A stretch of DNA of 7,256 nt from a virus. Taxonomy: Duplodnaviria > Heunggongvirae > Uroviricota > Caudoviricetes. The position numbers and the translations under genes are program-made. Under the pieces are notes generated by a model. That model was not told where the DNA came from and ran no database searches. It worked only from the letters and a program-made list of their open reading frames with translations. Of the stretch, positions 1 to 7,256 are shown one piece after another. The stretch is from IMG/VR virus record IMGVR_UViG_2778261296_000008; one strand, written 5' to 3'. Position 1 is the first letter of the stretch, and the number at the start of each line of letters is the position of its first letter.

Positions 1-219
1 TCACATCCACATAATTTGCTGCCCTGACGGCAACGGGTGCGGCCTTACGGCGTGGACTTCTCCCGGCTTCACGATGTATCTCTGTACCGACTCATAGGTG
101 ATGAACGTGGCGCTGCAATTCACGTTCTGACACTGGTGATAACGCTCTTTTGTCGTGTCAGTGATATAGCGGCTTGTACGCGCATGTGCGGCATGCTGGC
201 ATAAAGGACAATGAAACAT
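1..219 (-). CDS. ogr: Ogr, zinc-finger late-gene transcriptional activator (72 aa)
   Basis: Translation from the ATG at 219..217 gives MFHCPLCQHAAHARTSRYITDTTKERYHQCQNVNCSATF..., with the Cys4/Cys7/Cys30/Cys35 zinc-finger spacing (C-x2-C-x22-C-x4-C) of the P2 Ogr/Delta family. A GAGG Shine-Dalgarno lies just upstream. Stop codon TGA at 3..1. The track ORF (1..282) runs further upstream, but the 72-aa product from 219 matches the known Ogr length. Confidence 0.88.
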   Translation of the reverse strand: MFHCPLCQHAAHARTSRYITDTTKERYHQCQNVNCSATFITYESVQRYIVKPGEVHAVRPHPLPSGQQIMWM

Positions 220-300: not shown

Positions 301-1464
301 TCACTCATCATCTTCTGTTTCGTACTCCACATCAGAAAGCCTGACCTCAAGCTCTAAGGACGTCGTGAAGCCGCTATTATTCAGAAAATGTGTCACCTTA
401 GTGATTGTCCAGTCCTGCTCGTCTATGACGCGCTTAAAGCCTGACACTTTGACCGGCGTTTCCGTGTAAATATCTGCCCGACCGGTAGCCAGGCTGATGG
501 AGAACTCCGCAACACCCCGTTGCAGTTTATCCCACTTCGCCTGAGCGGCGCGCATGGCCTGTGCTTTCGTGGCATATACCGTGGTCAGGGCAAAAACGTT
601 GTCAGCCTCACCGGCCATGTATTCACCTTCGCGCGCTTCCGGTACTTTTGGCGCTTTCTTCTGCGTGACTGGTTTCGCTTTCGGGTGCTCCAGTGCGCGC
701 AGGTGTTTCTCTTTCTTTTTGCGTTTCAGTTTTACCTTCTGCTTTTGCGGCTTCGGGTCTTTGGTGTGTAACCACTTTGCCGTTACGCCGGTGTAGGCTC
801 CACGGTCAGCAATCGCAAAATGATGACGGTCGCCGTCGCTGCGGGTGATGGTGACCTGCTGGATTTTTTTACCGCTGGCCGTCACCCCCTGCCCCGCTTT
901 GAGAAACAACAATTTTCCCATTTTTACCGACACCTCACCGCCGTTGCGTTCTGCAAGACGGGTCAGGAATTTCGCATCAGACTCCTGCGACTGGTCGATG
1001 TGCGGGATTTTAATTCCGGCCAGTGACGGAGCGACACTGGCTTCCAGCCTGTTACGGGAGGCTATCGCCTCAACAATCGCACCGAGCGTGGTGTCATGCC
1101 ATGAGCCTTCACGGCGGGAATTGAGCGTCCCGCGAAAATCTGCACTCCGGGCGCGGATGGTGACCACATCCGGTGCGCCCCGGTGTTCAACCTCATCAAC
1201 GGTAAATTTCCCTTTGCATACCAGGGCAAAACCTTTCCAGCCGATATACACCGTCAGGACAGCGCCACGAACCGGTAGTCCGACCTGCCCGTCGGCATCG
1301 TTCAGTTCAATATCAAGCTGGTCAGCCTCAAAGCCCCGGTTATCCGTCAGGGTCATGCTCATCAGACGGTCGCTGATATTGCCGGTAATATCCCTGCTGT
1401 CGAGCATCAGCATGTAATCCGGCGTCAGCGTACTGCCTGCATCAAATGTCAGTGCATCCAGCAT
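301..1464 (-). CDS. D: Tail protein gpD (P2 D-like late tail gene, 387 aa)
   Basis: A 387-aa ORF of the same length as P2 gpD, immediately downstream of U. Its ATG (1464..1462) overlaps the U stop codon as TAATG, which suggests translational coupling. It contains a Lys-rich basic segment at about residues 234-275. Confidence 0.88.
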   Translation of the reverse strand: MLDALTFDAGSTLTPDYMLMLDSRDITGNISDRLMSMTLTDNRGFEADQLDIELNDADGQVGLPVRGAVLTVYIGWKGFALVCKGKFTVDEVEHRGAPDVVTIRARSADFRGTLNSRREGSWHDTTLGAIVEAIASRNRLEASVAPSLAGIKIPHIDQSQESDAKFLTRLAERNGGEVSVKMGKLLFLKAGQGVTASGKKIQQVTITRSDGDRHHFAIADRGAYTGVTAKWLHTKDPKPQKQKVKLKRKKKEKHLRALEHPKAKPVTQKKAPKVPEAREGEYMAGEADNVFALTTVYATKAQAMRAAQAKWDKLQRGVAEFSISLATGRADIYTETPVKVSGFKRVIDEQDWTITKVTHFLNNSGFTTSLELEVRLSDVEYETEDDE

Positions 1465-1943
1465 TATCCCGCCCCCGTCATACCCGTGAATTTAGTCGCC
1501 ATACTGCCAGCCTTACCGATGAGCGATTCCGCCTGTTTACCGATATCGCCATAAAGCGCGGCCAGTGATTCATCAACGCGGGTGAGCGACAGCGTAAAAT
1601 CAATTTTCCGGGGTGTGCCGTCTGCAAAGAAAATACTCCCTGTTTCACTCACCTTGCTGATGACATACATGCCGTAAATCATGCCGGTGCCATCCAGCAA
1701 CGGCCACGCCCGCCCCTCCTCTGCCATCAGCCTGAGCGTGGTCATCGTCAGCTTGCCGCCGGTCAGTTCGGGATAAAGCACACCGGCAAGCGTGATGTTT
1801 TCCTCACCCACACCGAGAAACTGAAAAGCGTCCCGTTTACCTATACGGGAATTTGACGGCCAGCGATAATCTGATTCACGCTGCATGGTCTGGTGTGGCA
1901 GCGTCTGGCGCATAAAAACAAACATACCTAACGCGAGCATCAT
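1464..1943 (-). CDS. U: Tail protein gpU (159 aa)
   Basis: A 159-aa ORF of the same length and position as P2 gpU, between T and D. A strong Shine-Dalgarno (TAAGGAGGTGACGAAAA-ATG) lies upstream. Stop codon TAA at 1466..1464 shares one nucleotide with the D start. Confidence 0.88.
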   Translation of the reverse strand: MMLALGMFVFMRQTLPHQTMQRESDYRWPSNSRIGKRDAFQFLGVGEENITLAGVLYPELTGGKLTMTTLRLMAEEGRAWPLLDGTGMIYGMYVISKVSETGSIFFADGTPRKIDFTLSLTRVDESLAALYGDIGKQAESLIGKAGSMATKFTGMTGAG

Positions 1944-1957
1944 TTTTCGTCACCTCC

Positions 1958-4405
1958 TTAACCGTCATGCATCATGCTGGCACGGGCGCGCGCACGTTTA
2001 TCCCGCTCGTATTTTTCGAGCGCATCCTGTAACTGGCGGTCGAGCTGTGTCCCCGGCGCAGTACCACCCGTCAGGCTGATGTGATATTCGTTTTTACTCT
2101 GGTCCACATAAGAGCGGCCAGCCGGTGCCGTGACCGGCTGATAAGCCTGATAGCCTGCATAAGAGCTGGTCGCCGGAATATAACCACCGGTGCCATACGT
2201 GGCGGCATGAGTTCTGGCGGCGGTCTGGTCAAGTGTGTCTGACTCTTTGTTGATGACCCCGAGCTTTTCCAGTACCCAGTCAATGCCGCTGCGCAGTTTG
2301 TTGAACGCATTAAGCGGCAGCATCAGTGCGTCAGCCAGTGCCTGCCCGAACATGACGCCCGTGTCACGGCAACGGTTCAGGGTGTCCTGGGTGGCTTTAA
2401 CCGGGGCAATCAGGTTTTTAAACCACTGCCACGCGGCCTGTAACTTTTCGCCCAGCCAGTCAAACACCGGCTTCAGTGGCGTGAACAGTTCTCCCACCGG
2501 CGCAAATGCCGCTTTCAGCCCTTCCACCACACCGCCAAAGAATGCGCTGACAGGCTCCCAGTATTTACGGATAAGCAACGCCCCGGCGACAATTGCAGCC
2601 ACCACGGCCACAACCGGCCAGCTAATCGCCCCGATGGCCGTCATAACGGCACTACCAACCGTCGTGAAGATTGCCCCCATTGCGCCTGCTGCCGCGATGA
2701 TGGCATTGATGCCGGTGATAACCGGCCAGGCTACAAGACCAATTGCACCGATGATGCCAGTAAGCGCCAGCGCGCCACCGGCAATGATGCCAATGGTTGA
2801 CGCCAGTGATTTGTTTTTCTGTATCCAGCCGTCGAGTTTTAACACATACTTTGTGGCCGTCTGCGTGAGATTACGCAGTGCGCCTTCCTGCTGGTCAAAC
2901 AGGTCAGTCCCCACCGCCTCATAAGCGGACTGAAACTCCTTAAAATCACCTCCGAGGTTGTCCTGCATGATATTTACCAGTTCTGCGGTCTTTCCGTCTG
3001 AGGCTTTAAACGCAGCGGTCAGTTTGTCCAGCTTTCCGGTTGAGGCGGCAGTCATCAGCACGGCGGCGGCTGAACTGGCCTCCTCCCCGAAAATGGTTTT
3101 CATGTATTCAGCCTGCTGGGCAGTACCGAGCCGGTTTTTCTCAAAACTGGCCTGCATTTCTTTCAGAATGGTAAATACTGGTCGGGTGTTTCCCTTACTG
3201 TCTGAGGTTTTCACACCAAGCTCTTTGAGTGCATCCCATGCTTTTCCCGTCGGTGCCTGCAGGCGGCTTAACACGGCACGGCTTCCCGTCCCCGCCATTG
3301 AGCCTGTGATTTTTGCATCATGCAGCGCCCCGACCATTGCGGCGGTTTCTTCAATGCTGACACCGGCATTTTTTGCCACAGGTGCGGCATAGGTCAGCGC
3401 ATCGCTCATGCCGTCAAAATCGGCGGCGGTTTTGTTCATCGTCATGGAGAGAACATCCCCGATATGAGCGACCTTATCGTTTGAAAGCTGAAAGGCGGAT
3501 TTCATCCCCATCAGCAGGGCGGCATTTTCTTCCATCGTGCGACGGTTCGCCAGCGCCATATTCAACGTGACCGGCGTTGCCGCCTGAATGGCATCAACAT
3601 CCCCACCGGCTTTCGCGATAATAATCTGCGCACCGGCTGCATCATCCGCCGAGGCGGCGGTATTGTCGCCGAGCTGGCGCGCCTGCTTGCGTAGTGCAGC
3701 CATTTCGGCGGAGTCTTTTGCCACACCGAGCACAGCCTGCAATTCTGAGTTTTTCTGCGCAAACTCATAACCGGGCATCAGCAACTTAACTCCGGCCATC
3801 GTTCCCGCCGCCGCAATCCCCACACCGGCAGCGCCCACTGAGGCCATATTTCCGGCCAGTTCCTTTCCGGCCTGATAACGCTGTTTTACTGCGTTAAGTT
3901 TTGCCTGTTGTGCACTGACACGCGCCAGCGCGTCGCGCTGTCGGTTAAGCTGTGCGGTGGTTTCACTGATACGGTTTTTCAGTCCCTGCTCATCATGTGC
4001 AAGATTGCGGGTATTAATTCCCACAGCGGCCAGTTCCCGCTGCTGGCGTTTAACGGAGTCTGTCAGGCGGTTATATTTCGCCTGTAAATCCTCCGCCGCA
4101 CGCTTTGCGGATTCCAGCACTTTCGCCTGAGCACGTGTCGGACGTTCGGTGTTTTTAAACTGTGTGGCAAGGGCTTCGGCCTCCTGCCGTGCCTTTTCAA
4201 GTGCATGACCAGTCACGGCAAGCTGTGCACTGGTCTTGCGAAATCCCTCAATACGGGATGCGTGACCGTTCATCTCGCGCAGTGATTTTTGTGTTTCCCG
4301 GATATCCCCCGACAGCGACTTACTCGCTGTGCGGATGGATTTAAACGGGCGGGATGCCTGGTCAACAGCCCTGAGCAATACCTGTAATTTTACATTGTTA
4401 CTCAT
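1958..4405 (-). CDS. T: Tail tape measure protein gpT (815 aa)
   Basis: An 815-aa ORF of the same length as P2 gpT. The N-terminal third is helical and rich in Q/R/A/E/K (coiled-coil-like). A long Gly/Ala/Ile-rich hydrophobic segment at about residues 533-612 is typical of tape measure proteins. Its ATG (4405..4403) overlaps the E' stop codon. Confidence 0.9.
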   Translation of the reverse strand: MSNNVKLQVLLRAVDQASRPFKSIRTASKSLSGDIRETQKSLREMNGHASRIEGFRKTSAQLAVTGHALEKARQEAEALATQFKNTERPTRAQAKVLESAKRAAEDLQAKYNRLTDSVKRQQRELAAVGINTRNLAHDEQGLKNRISETTAQLNRQRDALARVSAQQAKLNAVKQRYQAGKELAGNMASVGAAGVGIAAAGTMAGVKLLMPGYEFAQKNSELQAVLGVAKDSAEMAALRKQARQLGDNTAASADDAAGAQIIIAKAGGDVDAIQAATPVTLNMALANRRTMEENAALLMGMKSAFQLSNDKVAHIGDVLSMTMNKTAADFDGMSDALTYAAPVAKNAGVSIEETAAMVGALHDAKITGSMAGTGSRAVLSRLQAPTGKAWDALKELGVKTSDSKGNTRPVFTILKEMQASFEKNRLGTAQQAEYMKTIFGEEASSAAAVLMTAASTGKLDKLTAAFKASDGKTAELVNIMQDNLGGDFKEFQSAYEAVGTDLFDQQEGALRNLTQTATKYVLKLDGWIQKNKSLASTIGIIAGGALALTGIIGAIGLVAWPVITGINAIIAAAGAMGAIFTTVGSAVMTAIGAISWPVVAVVAAIVAGALLIRKYWEPVSAFFGGVVEGLKAAFAPVGELFTPLKPVFDWLGEKLQAAWQWFKNLIAPVKATQDTLNRCRDTGVMFGQALADALMLPLNAFNKLRSGIDWVLEKLGVINKESDTLDQTAARTHAATYGTGGYIPATSSYAGYQAYQPVTAPAGRSYVDQSKNEYHISLTGGTAPGTQLDRQLQDALEKYERDKRARARASMMHDG

Positions 4406-4825
4406 TCGTGTTTCCGCTTCGCCGGAGCGCCTTTTCGCGCCATGTGATGAGTTCGGTCAGGCTCATGGGATACAGTTCTGATGGCGGCCAGTGAAATATC
4501 ACTGCCACATCCGCCATCAGGTCATCGACCGAGAGATTTTTCGGAAACGTCACTGCACCGAGTTCGGCGACAAAAAACCGACCACCTTACCGGCCAGCGC
4601 CACAAGGTCAGGCAGTTCCAGCGCGGCGACTTCCTGCTCGGTCAGCATCGGTGCCGTCATGCGCGGCAGCACCTTAATCAGTGCATCGACTTCTGAGTTT
4701 GCGACCGCAGCCAGACTGACACCGCGCAGCGTCCCGGCACTGGGTTTCATCAGCGTGACCTGTTCGATGACCTGCTCACCACGCTTGACCGGATTGTCCA
4801 GGGTAATCACATTTTCTTTGTTCAT
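4398..4825 (-). CDS. E+E': gpE+E' tail chaperone, programmed -1 ribosomal frameshift product (about 142 aa)
   Basis: A -1 slip on T TTT TTG (4577..4571) continues in the -1 frame as ...GFFVAELGAVTFPKNLSVDDLMADVAVIFHWPPSELYPMSLTELITWREKALRRSGNTNE, ending at TAA 4400..4398. That is 84 + 1 + 57 = 142 aa, matching P2 E+E' and the conserved G/GT-like chaperone frameshift found upstream of tape measure genes. Worked out by hand from the sequence. Confidence 0.8.
4550..4825 (-). CDS. E: Tail assembly chaperone gpE (91 aa, unshifted product)
   Basis: A 91-aa ORF between FII and T, MNKENVITLDNPVKRGEQ...GFLSPNSVQ, ending at TGA 4552..4550. It contains the slippery heptamer T TTT TTG (4577..4571) seven codons before its stop. 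Confidence 0.88.
   Translation of the reverse strand: MNKENVITLDNPVKRGEQVIEQVTLMKPSAGTLRGVSLAAVANSEVDALIKVLPRMTAPMLTEQEVAALELPDLVALAGKVVGFLSPNSVQ
4571..4577 (-). other. Slippery heptamer T_TTT_TTG for the E/E' -1 frameshift
   Basis: The plus strand reads caaaaaa at 4571..4577, which is TTTTTTG on the coding strand in the X_XXY_YYZ register of the E frame (GGT TTT TTG). Confidence 0.8.
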
Positions 4826-4881: not shown

Positions 4882-5400
4882 TCACAGGCCGATATTGCGG
4901 CGGTGTTGCTCCAGCCGGTCGACGCCGTTCACCTTCTCAATCATGTTGATGGTGTCGATTTCGACCAGCTCCTTACCGTCCATCGTCAGCCGGAAATAGG
5001 TGCAGACCACGGAGATTTTCGACTCAGTGTCTTCTCCCTGTTTCCCCTCGCCGGTGTCGATTTCTTTCTGACGGCCACGCATGACCACCTCGACGGCCAC
5101 CGTTTCGCCGGTATCGTCGCGCTGGTAAGAGCCTGCAAAACGAATCGGCACGGCATCCACACCGGTTGCGGCGTAAAGCTCCCAGATAACCGAATCCGGG
5201 AAGCCCCCGAGCGACCACTCCATTGACAGCGCATCGTCATCAAGGCCGAGGTCTACCGGTGCGCTGCCGTTCATCCCCGCACCGCGATAGTTTTCGAGCT
5301 TACGGGTCAGTTTTGGCAGCGTGACGGACTTTGCAACGCCCTGATAGCTGTAGCCGTTCAGAAAGACGTTCATTAACTTGAGTTTGCGCGGCATTGCCAT
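4882..5400 (-). CDS. FII: Tail tube protein gpFII (172 aa)
   Basis: A 172-aa ORF of the same length as P2 FII, immediately downstream of the sheath gene. A GGAG Shine-Dalgarno sits in the 12-bp FI-FII spacer. Stop codon TGA at 4884..4882. Confidence 0.9.
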   Translation of the reverse strand: MAMPRKLKLMNVFLNGYSYQGVAKSVTLPKLTRKLENYRGAGMNGSAPVDLGLDDDALSMEWSLGGFPDSVIWELYAATGVDAVPIRFAGSYQRDDTGETVAVEVVMRGRQKEIDTGEGKQGEDTESKISVVCTYFRLTMDGKELVEIDTINMIEKVNGVDRLEQHRRNIGL

Positions 5401-5412
5401 CGGTCAGGCTCC

Positions 5413-6603
5413 TTAATTGCTGTTAACCGAGGTGACCAGATTTGCCAGGTATTTATCGGTAATACGCTGGCGCAGGGTCAGGTTTTCAAGAGGAGGCACC
5501 GGTGTATAGTCGTAGTCGATATACAGTTTTCCGGCCTTGAGGGTTTCCGCATCGTTGGATTCTTCGCTGAACCAGCAGGTCGCATCCACGATATAGCCGT
5601 TTGTTTTCAGCTCACGGAATTTGGCATTAATGCCGTCAACGATGTCGCGAATCAGCGTTGCGGTGATGGGCTTGTCCACCGCCCACATGTGCGCCTCAGC
5701 CATCGTGTCGGCCAGCACCTGCGCGGTGCGGGTGTAGTTTTCAAAGAGGAACAGCGGGTCATCAGAGCAGGTACGGTTACCCCAGAAGCGGAAACCGTCA
5801 CGGCGAATCAGCGTTGTGACGCCTGACTCATTCAGCAGGTCAGCATCGGTGCCGGACTCCTGCAAATCCCAGAATACAGATGCGCTGATGCCGGTAACAC
5901 CGTTCACCCCAACGTTGGACAGTGTTTTATGCCAGCCCTGCTCCTGGTCGATTTTAGCGCGCAGACCCAGCGCACGGGCGGTGGCATACGCGGTGGCGGT
6001 GGTACTGGTGACCGTATCCCATGCGAGGAAATCCGGCCAGATGACCATCAACTCACGCTGGCTGAAATTCTGGCGGTAGGCTTTCACCTCGGAAATAGTT
6101 TTACAGCCCCATGCGCTGATATACCCGAAAGCGCGCAGCTTCTGACAGACTGATGCCAGTGCAACAGCCACCTCTTTGGTATCCAGCCCCGGCACACCGA
6201 GAATACGCGGTTTAACACCGGTTACCGACTCCGCCGCCAGCAGGGCTTTTAGTCCGGTGTACTGACCGTTTTCGTCGGTGGTGCCGATGATATTGGAAAC
6301 GGTCTGCGCGAGTTTCGTTTCCTCGTCATCACCGGTGCCGTCTTCCACGCGCACGACAACGGTGACCGGTTTTGACTGGTCAGCGATGGCCTGCAACGAT
6401 GCCGCCAGCGTGCCTTTTTTACCGGCCTTTGCAATTGCGCTCTGCACATTGGTAATCAGCACAGGTTTATTGAGGGGGAAGGTTTCCGCATCCGCATCGC
6501 TGGCCGTGCAGACCATGCCGACAATGGCAGTGGATACGGTGGAAATGACGCGGGTGCCGTCGTTAATCTCCAGCACCTGCACGCCGTGATGATAGTCACT
6601 CAT
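5413..6603 (-). CDS. FI: Contractile tail sheath protein gpFI (396 aa)
   Basis: A 396-aa ORF of the same length as P2 FI, first gene of the FI-FII-E-T-U-D operon. Shine-Dalgarno GGAG lies 8 nt upstream of the ATG (6603..6601). Stop codon TAA at 5415..5413. Confidence 0.9.
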   Translation of the reverse strand: MSDYHHGVQVLEINDGTRVISTVSTAIVGMVCTASDADAETFPLNKPVLITNVQSAIAKAGKKGTLAASLQAIADQSKPVTVVVRVEDGTGDDEETKLAQTVSNIIGTTDENGQYTGLKALLAAESVTGVKPRILGVPGLDTKEVAVALASVCQKLRAFGYISAWGCKTISEVKAYRQNFSQRELMVIWPDFLAWDTVTSTTATAYATARALGLRAKIDQEQGWHKTLSNVGVNGVTGISASVFWDLQESGTDADLLNESGVTTLIRRDGFRFWGNRTCSDDPLFLFENYTRTAQVLADTMAEAHMWAVDKPITATLIRDIVDGINAKFRELKTNGYIVDATCWFSEESNDAETLKAGKLYIDYDYTPVPPLENLTLRQRITDKYLANLVTSVNSN

Positions 6604-6628
6604 CCGTTTAACTCCGTGGTTAATGGGT

Positions 6629-6692
6629 GAGTGGTATTTTCAGTTGTGCCGGAGATGTCAGGCTATTTGTCCCGGTTGGCTAAGGGATGACA
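6629..6692 (-). promoter_or_regulatory. Candidate Ogr-dependent late promoter P_F upstream of FI
   Basis: P2 late promoters carry a TGT-N12-ACA element centred near -55. The coding strand has TGTCATCCCTTAGCCAAC (6692..6675; TGT-N12-AAC, one mismatch). About 55 bp downstream of its centre is a -10-like GAAAAT (6641..6636), with no properly spaced -35, as expected for an activator-dependent promoter. The predicted start is about 25 nt upstream of the FI ATG. The element lies inside the 3' end of the invertase ORF. Confidence 0.35.
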
Positions 6693-7256
6693 CAATTTAT
6701 TCTTTGTCGCTGATGAGGGAAATTTTTTATAGAGCGTGGACAGGCCAATATCAAAAATCAGCGCCACACGTTGACGAGATTCCCCCGCAGCCAGCAACCG
6801 TCCGACCTGCTCCCACTCACTCGCGGTGAGTTTCGGACGTCTGCCACCAATACGACCTTTGGCTCTGGCCGCTTCCAGTCCGGCGCGTGTCCGCTCGACA
6901 ATGAGTTCTCGCTCCATTTCAGCCAGGGCCCCCATCACATGAAAGAAAAAACGCCCCATCGGCGTGCTGGTATCAATAGCATCCGTCAGACTGCGAAAAT
7001 TAACGCCGCGTTCGCGCAGTTCCTCAACCAGAATGACCAGATGCCGCATACTACGCCCCAGCCTGTCCAGCTTCCAGACTACCAGAGTGTCACCTGCTGA
7101 TAATGTTCTGAGCAGTTTTTTCAGTCCCGGTCTGTCGGACTTCGTGCCGCTGATTTTATCCTCAAAAATCCGCTCGCATCCTGCGCACTCCAGCGCGTTA
7201 CGCTGCAATTCCGTGTTCTGGTCATTTGTTGACACGCGTACATAGCCAATAAGCAT
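6663..7256 (-). CDS. Serine DNA invertase, Hin/Gin/Pin/Cin family (197 aa)
   Basis: The N-terminus MLIGYVRVSTNDQNTELQRNAL carries the catalytic-serine motif of small serine recombinases. Conserved blocks DTLVVWKLDRLGRS and MGRFFFHVMGALAEMERELIVERT, and a C-terminal helix-turn-helix (ALIFDIGLSTLYKKFP), match Hin-family invertases. The start codon is exactly at the window edge (7256..7254) and the stop TAG is at 6665..6663. Confidence 0.85.
   Translation of the reverse strand: MLIGYVRVSTNDQNTELQRNALECAGCERIFEDKISGTKSDRPGLKKLLRTLSAGDTLVVWKLDRLGRSMRHLVILVEELRERGVNFRSLTDAIDTSTPMGRFFFHVMGALAEMERELIVERTRAGLEAARAKGRIGGRRPKLTASEWEQVGRLLAAGESRQRVALIFDIGLSTLYKKFPSSATKNKLCHPLANRDK

Follow-up and report, generated by a model that had tools for sequence, protein, structure and literature searches.

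The window, i.e. the whole stretch of 7,256 nucleotides that was analysed, carries a late tail region of the P2 type and, at its far end, the gene of a DNA invertase. The genes from ogr to FII were assigned as open reading frames (ORFs) of the P2-type late tail region. The assignment of FI draws on its ORF and on the annotation of the loci L001 and L002 and of P2, while that of the invertase combines the ORF, Pfam, complete identity to WP_000905108.1, the identity to PinE, Gin and Hin, and the structure of Gin. The following genes are present:

1-219, minus strand: ogr
301-1464, minus strand: D
1464-1943, minus strand: U
1958-4405, minus strand: T
4398-4825, minus strand: E/E'
4882-5400, minus strand: FII
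5413-6603, minus strand: FI, tail sheath, first gene of the F operon
6663-7256, minus strand: invertase, 197 amino acids plus the stop codon TAG

This layout matches the annotated genes of a locus in Escherichia coli O55:H7 (L001, 98-99% identical) and of phage pro483. Every tail gene in the window is an intact ORF, pointing to a functional prophage. The highest identity to the window among complete E. coli genomes is 98.2%. A window-specific 61-mer has no exact match in genome contigs or metagenome contigs. In IMG/VR, one contig carries this 61-mer (IMGVR_UViG_2548876938_000002, hereafter L017); it is only about 97% identical to the window, contains internal deletions, and is not the source. 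Within 4398-4825, overlapping E (4550-4825) and GpE-family (4398-4553) ORFs precede the tape-measure gene. These correspond to the programmed -1 frameshift E/E+E' annotated in P2 and are ordinary.

Judged from its sequence, the gene at 6663-7256 encodes an ordinary, intact DNA invertase of the Pin/Gin type from a P2-like (Peduovirus) E. coli prophage. The ORF extends from ATG at 7256-7254 to TAG at 6665-6663, the start codon being formed by the last three bases of the window. The 197-residue product shows the architecture of the small serine recombinases (family size about 185-200 residues), in which an N-terminal catalytic domain is followed by a C-terminal helix-turn-helix (HTH). Specifically, Pfam identifies a Resolvase domain (residues 3-135, E 7.7e-53) and an HTH_7 domain (residues 138-181, E 5.4e-13). 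Furthermore, the protein matches PHROG 125 'DNA invertase' at 6.7e-101, and its closest solved structure is that of Mu Gin (3uj3, 4e-94), with residues 1-182 of the 193-residue chain aligned. The sequence identity amounts to 86% with PinE of e14, 75% with Gin of Mu and 65% with Hin; in the Hin sequence used, the numbering fits the residues that PMC3798978 names. WP_000905108.1 of L001 is the same protein at 100% identity, and 2419 indexed blocks of the assembly collection contain exactly this sequence. Its RefSeq label is only 'recombinase family protein'. The two domains are encoded as follows:

6852-7250, minus strand: catalytic (resolvase) domain, residues 3-135, located by Pfam and the alignment with Pin, Gin and Hin
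6714-6845, minus strand: C-terminal HTH_7 DNA-binding domain, residues 138-181, located by Pfam, with Q150, R153 and L154 in invariant columns

In the catalytic domain, the codon of Ser9 is located at 7230-7232, and the surrounding motif GYVRVS9TNDQ is intact, Ser9 being the counterpart of S9 in Gin and S10 in Hin. R7, R42, D64, R65 and R68 occupy alignment columns that are invariant with Pin, Gin and Hin, the catalytic arginines being conserved. The domain also contains the basic helix-B residues K46, K47 and R50. Together with Q150, R153 and L154 of the HTH domain, these correspond to K47, K/R48, K/R51, Q151, R154 and L155 of Hin, which are involved in activation by Fis and the enhancer and are conserved in invertases, not in resolvases; Q151, R154 and L155 constitute the Fis contact patch (PMC3798978). 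The enzyme is presumably dependent on Fis and an enhancer. The original prediction had described a complete invertase of the Hin/Gin family in the same orientation as the tail genes. This description holds, as the ORF is full-length, its catalytic-serine motif is undisrupted, and FI, FII, E, T, U, D and ogr are likewise encoded on the minus strand.

The invertase gene is a mosaic when compared with pinE of e14. Nucleotide identity ranges from 80 to 96% over codons 1-120 and falls to about 60-64% over codons 121-178 (window 6720-7256). This pattern points to a recombination junction close to the transition from the catalytic to the DNA-binding domain.

The gene had been placed in the Z/fun slot of P2, and both the gene order and the P2 homology agree with this placement, since fun(Z) occupies the same position before the late promoter pF. 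The end of fun(Z) in P2 is 390 bp upstream of FI, and the gene is encoded on the strand opposite to the tail genes. According to the P2 annotation, the activator-binding site and the transcription start of pF sit between fun(Z) and FI. In an alignment with this intergenic region, homology to P2 resumes at position 6695 of the window, inside the pF activator site, and two further features were located in this way:

6672-6700, minus strand: homologue of the binding site for the P2 pF late-promoter activator (Ogr), obtained by mapping P2 features through ungapped alignment
6663-6695, minus strand: last 10 invertase codons (LCHPLANRDK) and stop codon, P2-backbone DNA according to the P2 alignment and P2 annotation

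The homologue of the Ogr site overlaps the 3' end of the invertase ORF, and the equivalent of the pF transcription start is found at 6627-6629. The textbook dyad of P2 late promoters, TGT-N12-ACA, has no match in the window; the pF site is imperfect in P2 as well and was therefore mapped via alignment to the annotated P2 feature. As a minor new detail, the last 10 codons of the invertase gene are, to judge by this alignment, P2 late-promoter DNA. The native C-terminus was thus replaced at the insertion junction, and the invertase exceeds PinE by 13 residues because its ORF runs into the P2 promoter. The stop codon of the invertase is separated from the start of FI by 59 bp, in which no terminator-like structure is found. 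In the terminator scan, the only matches were weak 5-bp stems within coding sequence, and in a scan for sigma-70 promoters neither the intergenic region nor the surroundings of the invertase start gave a match.

Since the start codon of the invertase coincides with the last three bases of the window, the window includes neither the promoter of the gene nor the crossover sites and the segment between them. The prediction of such a segment was therefore tested in relatives. In total, eleven loci encoding the identical invertase protein were examined, namely L001, with 99% identity to the final 1.86 kb of the window, and L007-L016, ten loci retrieved via the protein. In L001, the tail-fibre gene H (1281 bp) and tfa (444 bp) are followed by an opposed pair consisting of tfaE (603 bp) and a fibre C-terminus (546 bp), and then by the invertase and FI. 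The opposed 546-bp ORF is located 30 bp before the ATG of the invertase. The same cassette layout is found in phage pro483, in L007-L014 and in L016. The alternative fibre tips belong to the Pfam families Collar and Gp53-like_C, respectively, and a separate Caudo_TAP chaperone gene comes after each of them.

The longest inverted repeat in the flank of L001 is a 27-nt pair, from which two 26-bp sites can be read, both built as 12-2-12 around a central AA. The proximal site, TTCTCCCAAACC-AA-CGTTTATGAAAA (in full TTCTCCCAAACCAACGTTTATGAAAA), is located 56-81 bp before the start codon of the invertase. It agrees with the e14 site in 26 of 26 positions and has the same distance from the ATG. The distal site, TTCTCCCAAACC-AA-GGTATGCGAGAA, is inverted and situated inside the tail-fibre gene H, about 2 kb further on. 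All ten further loci contain the proximal site at the same distance, and nine of them contain its partner within H, L015 being the exception. Both sites and both cassette pairs are thus kept in 10 of the 11 loci encoding the identical invertase. Furthermore, the loci cease to resemble each other precisely at the proximal site, as expected if this site bounds a variable cassette. A crossover site just upstream of the invertase, an inverted partner, and opposed fibre C-terminal cassettes bracketed by the two had been predicted beyond the end of the window, and all are present in relatives with the identical protein (L001 and nine of the ten further loci).

The relatives also show individual variation. 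In L013, the proximal site (6920-6945) has a Mu gix-like outer half (TTCCGGTAAACC) replacing the pix-type TTCTCCCAAACC, which indicates that the cassette side of the site travels with the cassette. In L015 (LR134152.1, 3200-7000), copies of IS1 replace the H side, and the invertase, one silent Collar-type cassette and the proximal site remain. L007 and L008 are two copies of the tail region about 18 kb apart in one E. coli genome (LS992171.1, 2954787-2969380 and 2973065-2987658). An element of the IS21 family is present within both of their invertible segments, which are in opposite orientations. This pair could represent a tandem prophage duplication or an assembly effect. The contig L017 is a prophage fragment that, compared with the window, has large internal deletions affecting FI, FII, E and T. 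It retains both 26-bp sites (1858-1883 and 3693-3718), and both the interval between these and the position of the invertase contain ORFs of the size expected. Between the crossover site and the ATG in L001, a short hairpin and a T run were observed at 10877-10896, corresponding to 21-40 bp past the end of the window. The hairpin is partly conserved in e14 and Mu (TGGCATCAT...TTTTA) and could be a terminator of the fibre-operon transcript or part of the invertase promoter.

In hin, gin and cin, the recombinational enhancer is embedded in the 5' part of the coding sequence of the invertase, and its Fis sites are spaced by about 48 bp. A candidate for such an element was identified in the window:

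7172-7235, no strand assigned: putative recombinational enhancer at the 5' end of the invertase gene, aligning with the 5' ends of gin and pinE

It comprises two candidate 15-bp Fis cores of the form G-N13-C, i.e. GTGTCAACAAATGAC at 7221-7235 and GCGCAGGATGCGAGC at 7172-7186. The two cores are spaced 49 bp centre to centre, and about 97 bp separate the nearer core from the midpoint of the crossover site of the relatives. The spacing between site and enhancer in Hin-type invertase systems is roughly 100 bp (PMC3798978). Synonymous conservation with respect to pin and gin is somewhat higher in codons 1-15, and the 5' end as such is not clearly above the rest of the gene. The element is a candidate enhancer by homology and motif spacing.

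Inversion of the segment was investigated by constructing a junction in silico, in which the segment was inverted at the predicted crossover (the central dinucleotide), and by searching 5,426 complete E. coli genomes. The inverted junction was found over its full length and with 99.7% identity in E. coli N58. At a coverage of 80% or more, the inverted junction occurs in 161 of these genomes and the uninverted junction in 56. The comparison of L001 with N58 (L004) reveals an exact inversion of 10922-12910 with collinear flanks and with breakpoints inside the two sites. The invertase and Tfa proteins of both are identical, and H is intact in both states, encoding 426 and 444 amino acids. Since both junction orientations are present among the genomes, the segment does invert. 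Programmed inversion is supported at the population level, i.e. across genomes and not within one culture. In enteropathogenic strain EPEC E2348/69, inversions in two P2-like prophages were detected by sequencing, one of them being a four-variant shufflon (PMC4272514). Reads from within one culture are available from that study for P2-like prophages.

The gene at 6663-7256 is therefore best explained, with high confidence, as the invertase of a Pin/Gin-type tail-fibre switching module in the Z/fun hotspot of a P2-like E. coli prophage. On the model of Hin and Gin, dimers of the invertase would bind to the two inverted 26-bp sites. The dimers would then synapse on the enhancer, bound by Fis and situated within the 5' portion of the invertase gene, completing the invertasome. 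Cleavage at the central AA/TT via Ser9 would be followed by a single 180-degree rotation, inverting a segment of about 1.98 kb. In the process, H would exchange its final 145-165 codons or so, together with the Tfa (G-like) gene downstream of it, for the opposed stored pair. A lysogen population would consequently be expected to release phage with two receptor specificities. The flank of the source was not recovered, so that the segment is assigned to this genome from the loci sampled, according to which it is in all likelihood present and intact.

The invertase may also serve the lysogen, in addition to or instead of host-range switching, either by acting in trans on pix-type sites of other prophages such as e14 or by giving rise to proteins derived from the fibre that block adsorption of other phages. 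Din-family invertases complement each other. Cross-reaction is plausible given that the proximal site is identical to that of e14 and that the protein is 86% identical to PinE. An adsorption block has a precedent in PinQ of Qin, which inverts the P segment of e14 and thereby blocks adsorption of T2 (PMC12529663). However, the module is part of an apparently complete tail operon, and the classical host-range role is sufficient, making a role of this kind unlikely. It is equally doubtful that expression of the invertase is coupled to the transcription of the late tail genes and/or that the enzyme acts in trans on e14-type segments, with a PinQ-like block. If such coupling were true, Ogr, once bound, might block the last part of the invertase transcript, or transcription of the invertase might continue into the F operon.

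Alternatively, the gene could be an orphan remnant, in which an intact invertase no longer switches anything because the segment in this genome has been lost by deletion, is interrupted by an IS element or is locked. Such decay is seen among the relatives. In L015, IS1 removed the site and the cassette on the H side while sparing the invertase and one silent cassette, L007 and L008 carry the IS21-family insertion within the segment, and L017 is a prophage remnant ridden with deletions. Nevertheless, both sites and both cassette pairs are retained in ten of the eleven loci with the identical protein, the IS21-bearing pair still occurs in both orientations, and even the degraded L017 still has both sites. 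Moreover, the tail genes of the window are all intact ORFs, suggesting a functional prophage, and loss of the segment is considered very unlikely. A resolvase or generic serine recombinase, acting in co-integrate resolution or excision and not in inversion, would fit the RefSeq name and the Pfam domains, which are common to resolvases, but was rejected as highly improbable because the match to Gin reaches 316 bits versus 100-118 bits for gamma-delta/Tn3 resolvases, residues conserved only in Fis-dependent invertases are present, the flanking sites in relatives are inverted rather than direct, and both orientations are observed.

The tail-fibre switching module thus remains the preferred explanation, and the arrangement of invertase and tail-fibre switching in P2-like prophages is already known. 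Both PMC4272514 and bioRxiv 10.1101/2024.10.15.618418 describe it, in line with the original assessment that variation of this kind is known and does not represent a new system. The result opens no new question. Its value is in annotation, as the 'recombinase family protein' of thousands of E. coli assemblies can be named a tail-fibre invertase of the Pin type. A programmed 2-kb inversion will distinguish assemblies of the same prophage, and it reflects neither an assembly error nor divergence. For host-range prediction and prophage typing, both fibre tips should be counted.

Among the known systems, the Pin (PinE)/P segment of e14, a cryptic prophage of E. coli K-12, shares the identical proximal 26-bp site at 56-81 bp from the ATG. 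Its layout, stfP-tfaP / tfaE-stfE'-pinE, is also the same, with an inverted 603-bp tfaE and fibre C-terminus before the invertase. However, e14 is a defective lambdoid remnant, whereas the module described here resides in the prophage of a P2-like myovirus whose tail operon is intact, and PinE ends 13 residues earlier than this invertase. The Gin/G segment of Mu has the same order, in which the constant fibre is followed by [Sv U / U' Sv'] and the invertase, all reading the same way, and its crossover site is located about 60-70 bp before the invertase start. The Mu segment is about 3 kb in length, compared to about 2.0 kb here, and the fibre cassettes and the phage backbone differ. The Cin/C segment of P1 stands beside that of Mu among the closest known systems, and the comparison covered Mu. 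The Hin/H segment of Salmonella has the same type of 26-bp site (12-2-12, central AA). The activation residues of Hin are conserved in the present invertase, and the spacing from the site to the candidate enhancer is likewise about 100 bp. In contrast, Hin flips a promoter in flagellar phase variation, while the module here swaps coding C-termini. Among the P2-like phages, pro483 is 94.9% identical over the invertase region and contains the same opposed cassettes, and some relatives carry multi-site shufflons (PMC4272514). In a survey of P2-like hotspots, a DNA invertase was often found in the Z/fun locus, with adjacent genes inverted (bioRxiv 10.1101/2024.10.15.618418). Compared with the reported P2-like invertible loci, the element, its slot and its arrangement are the same, and the cassette alleles differ.
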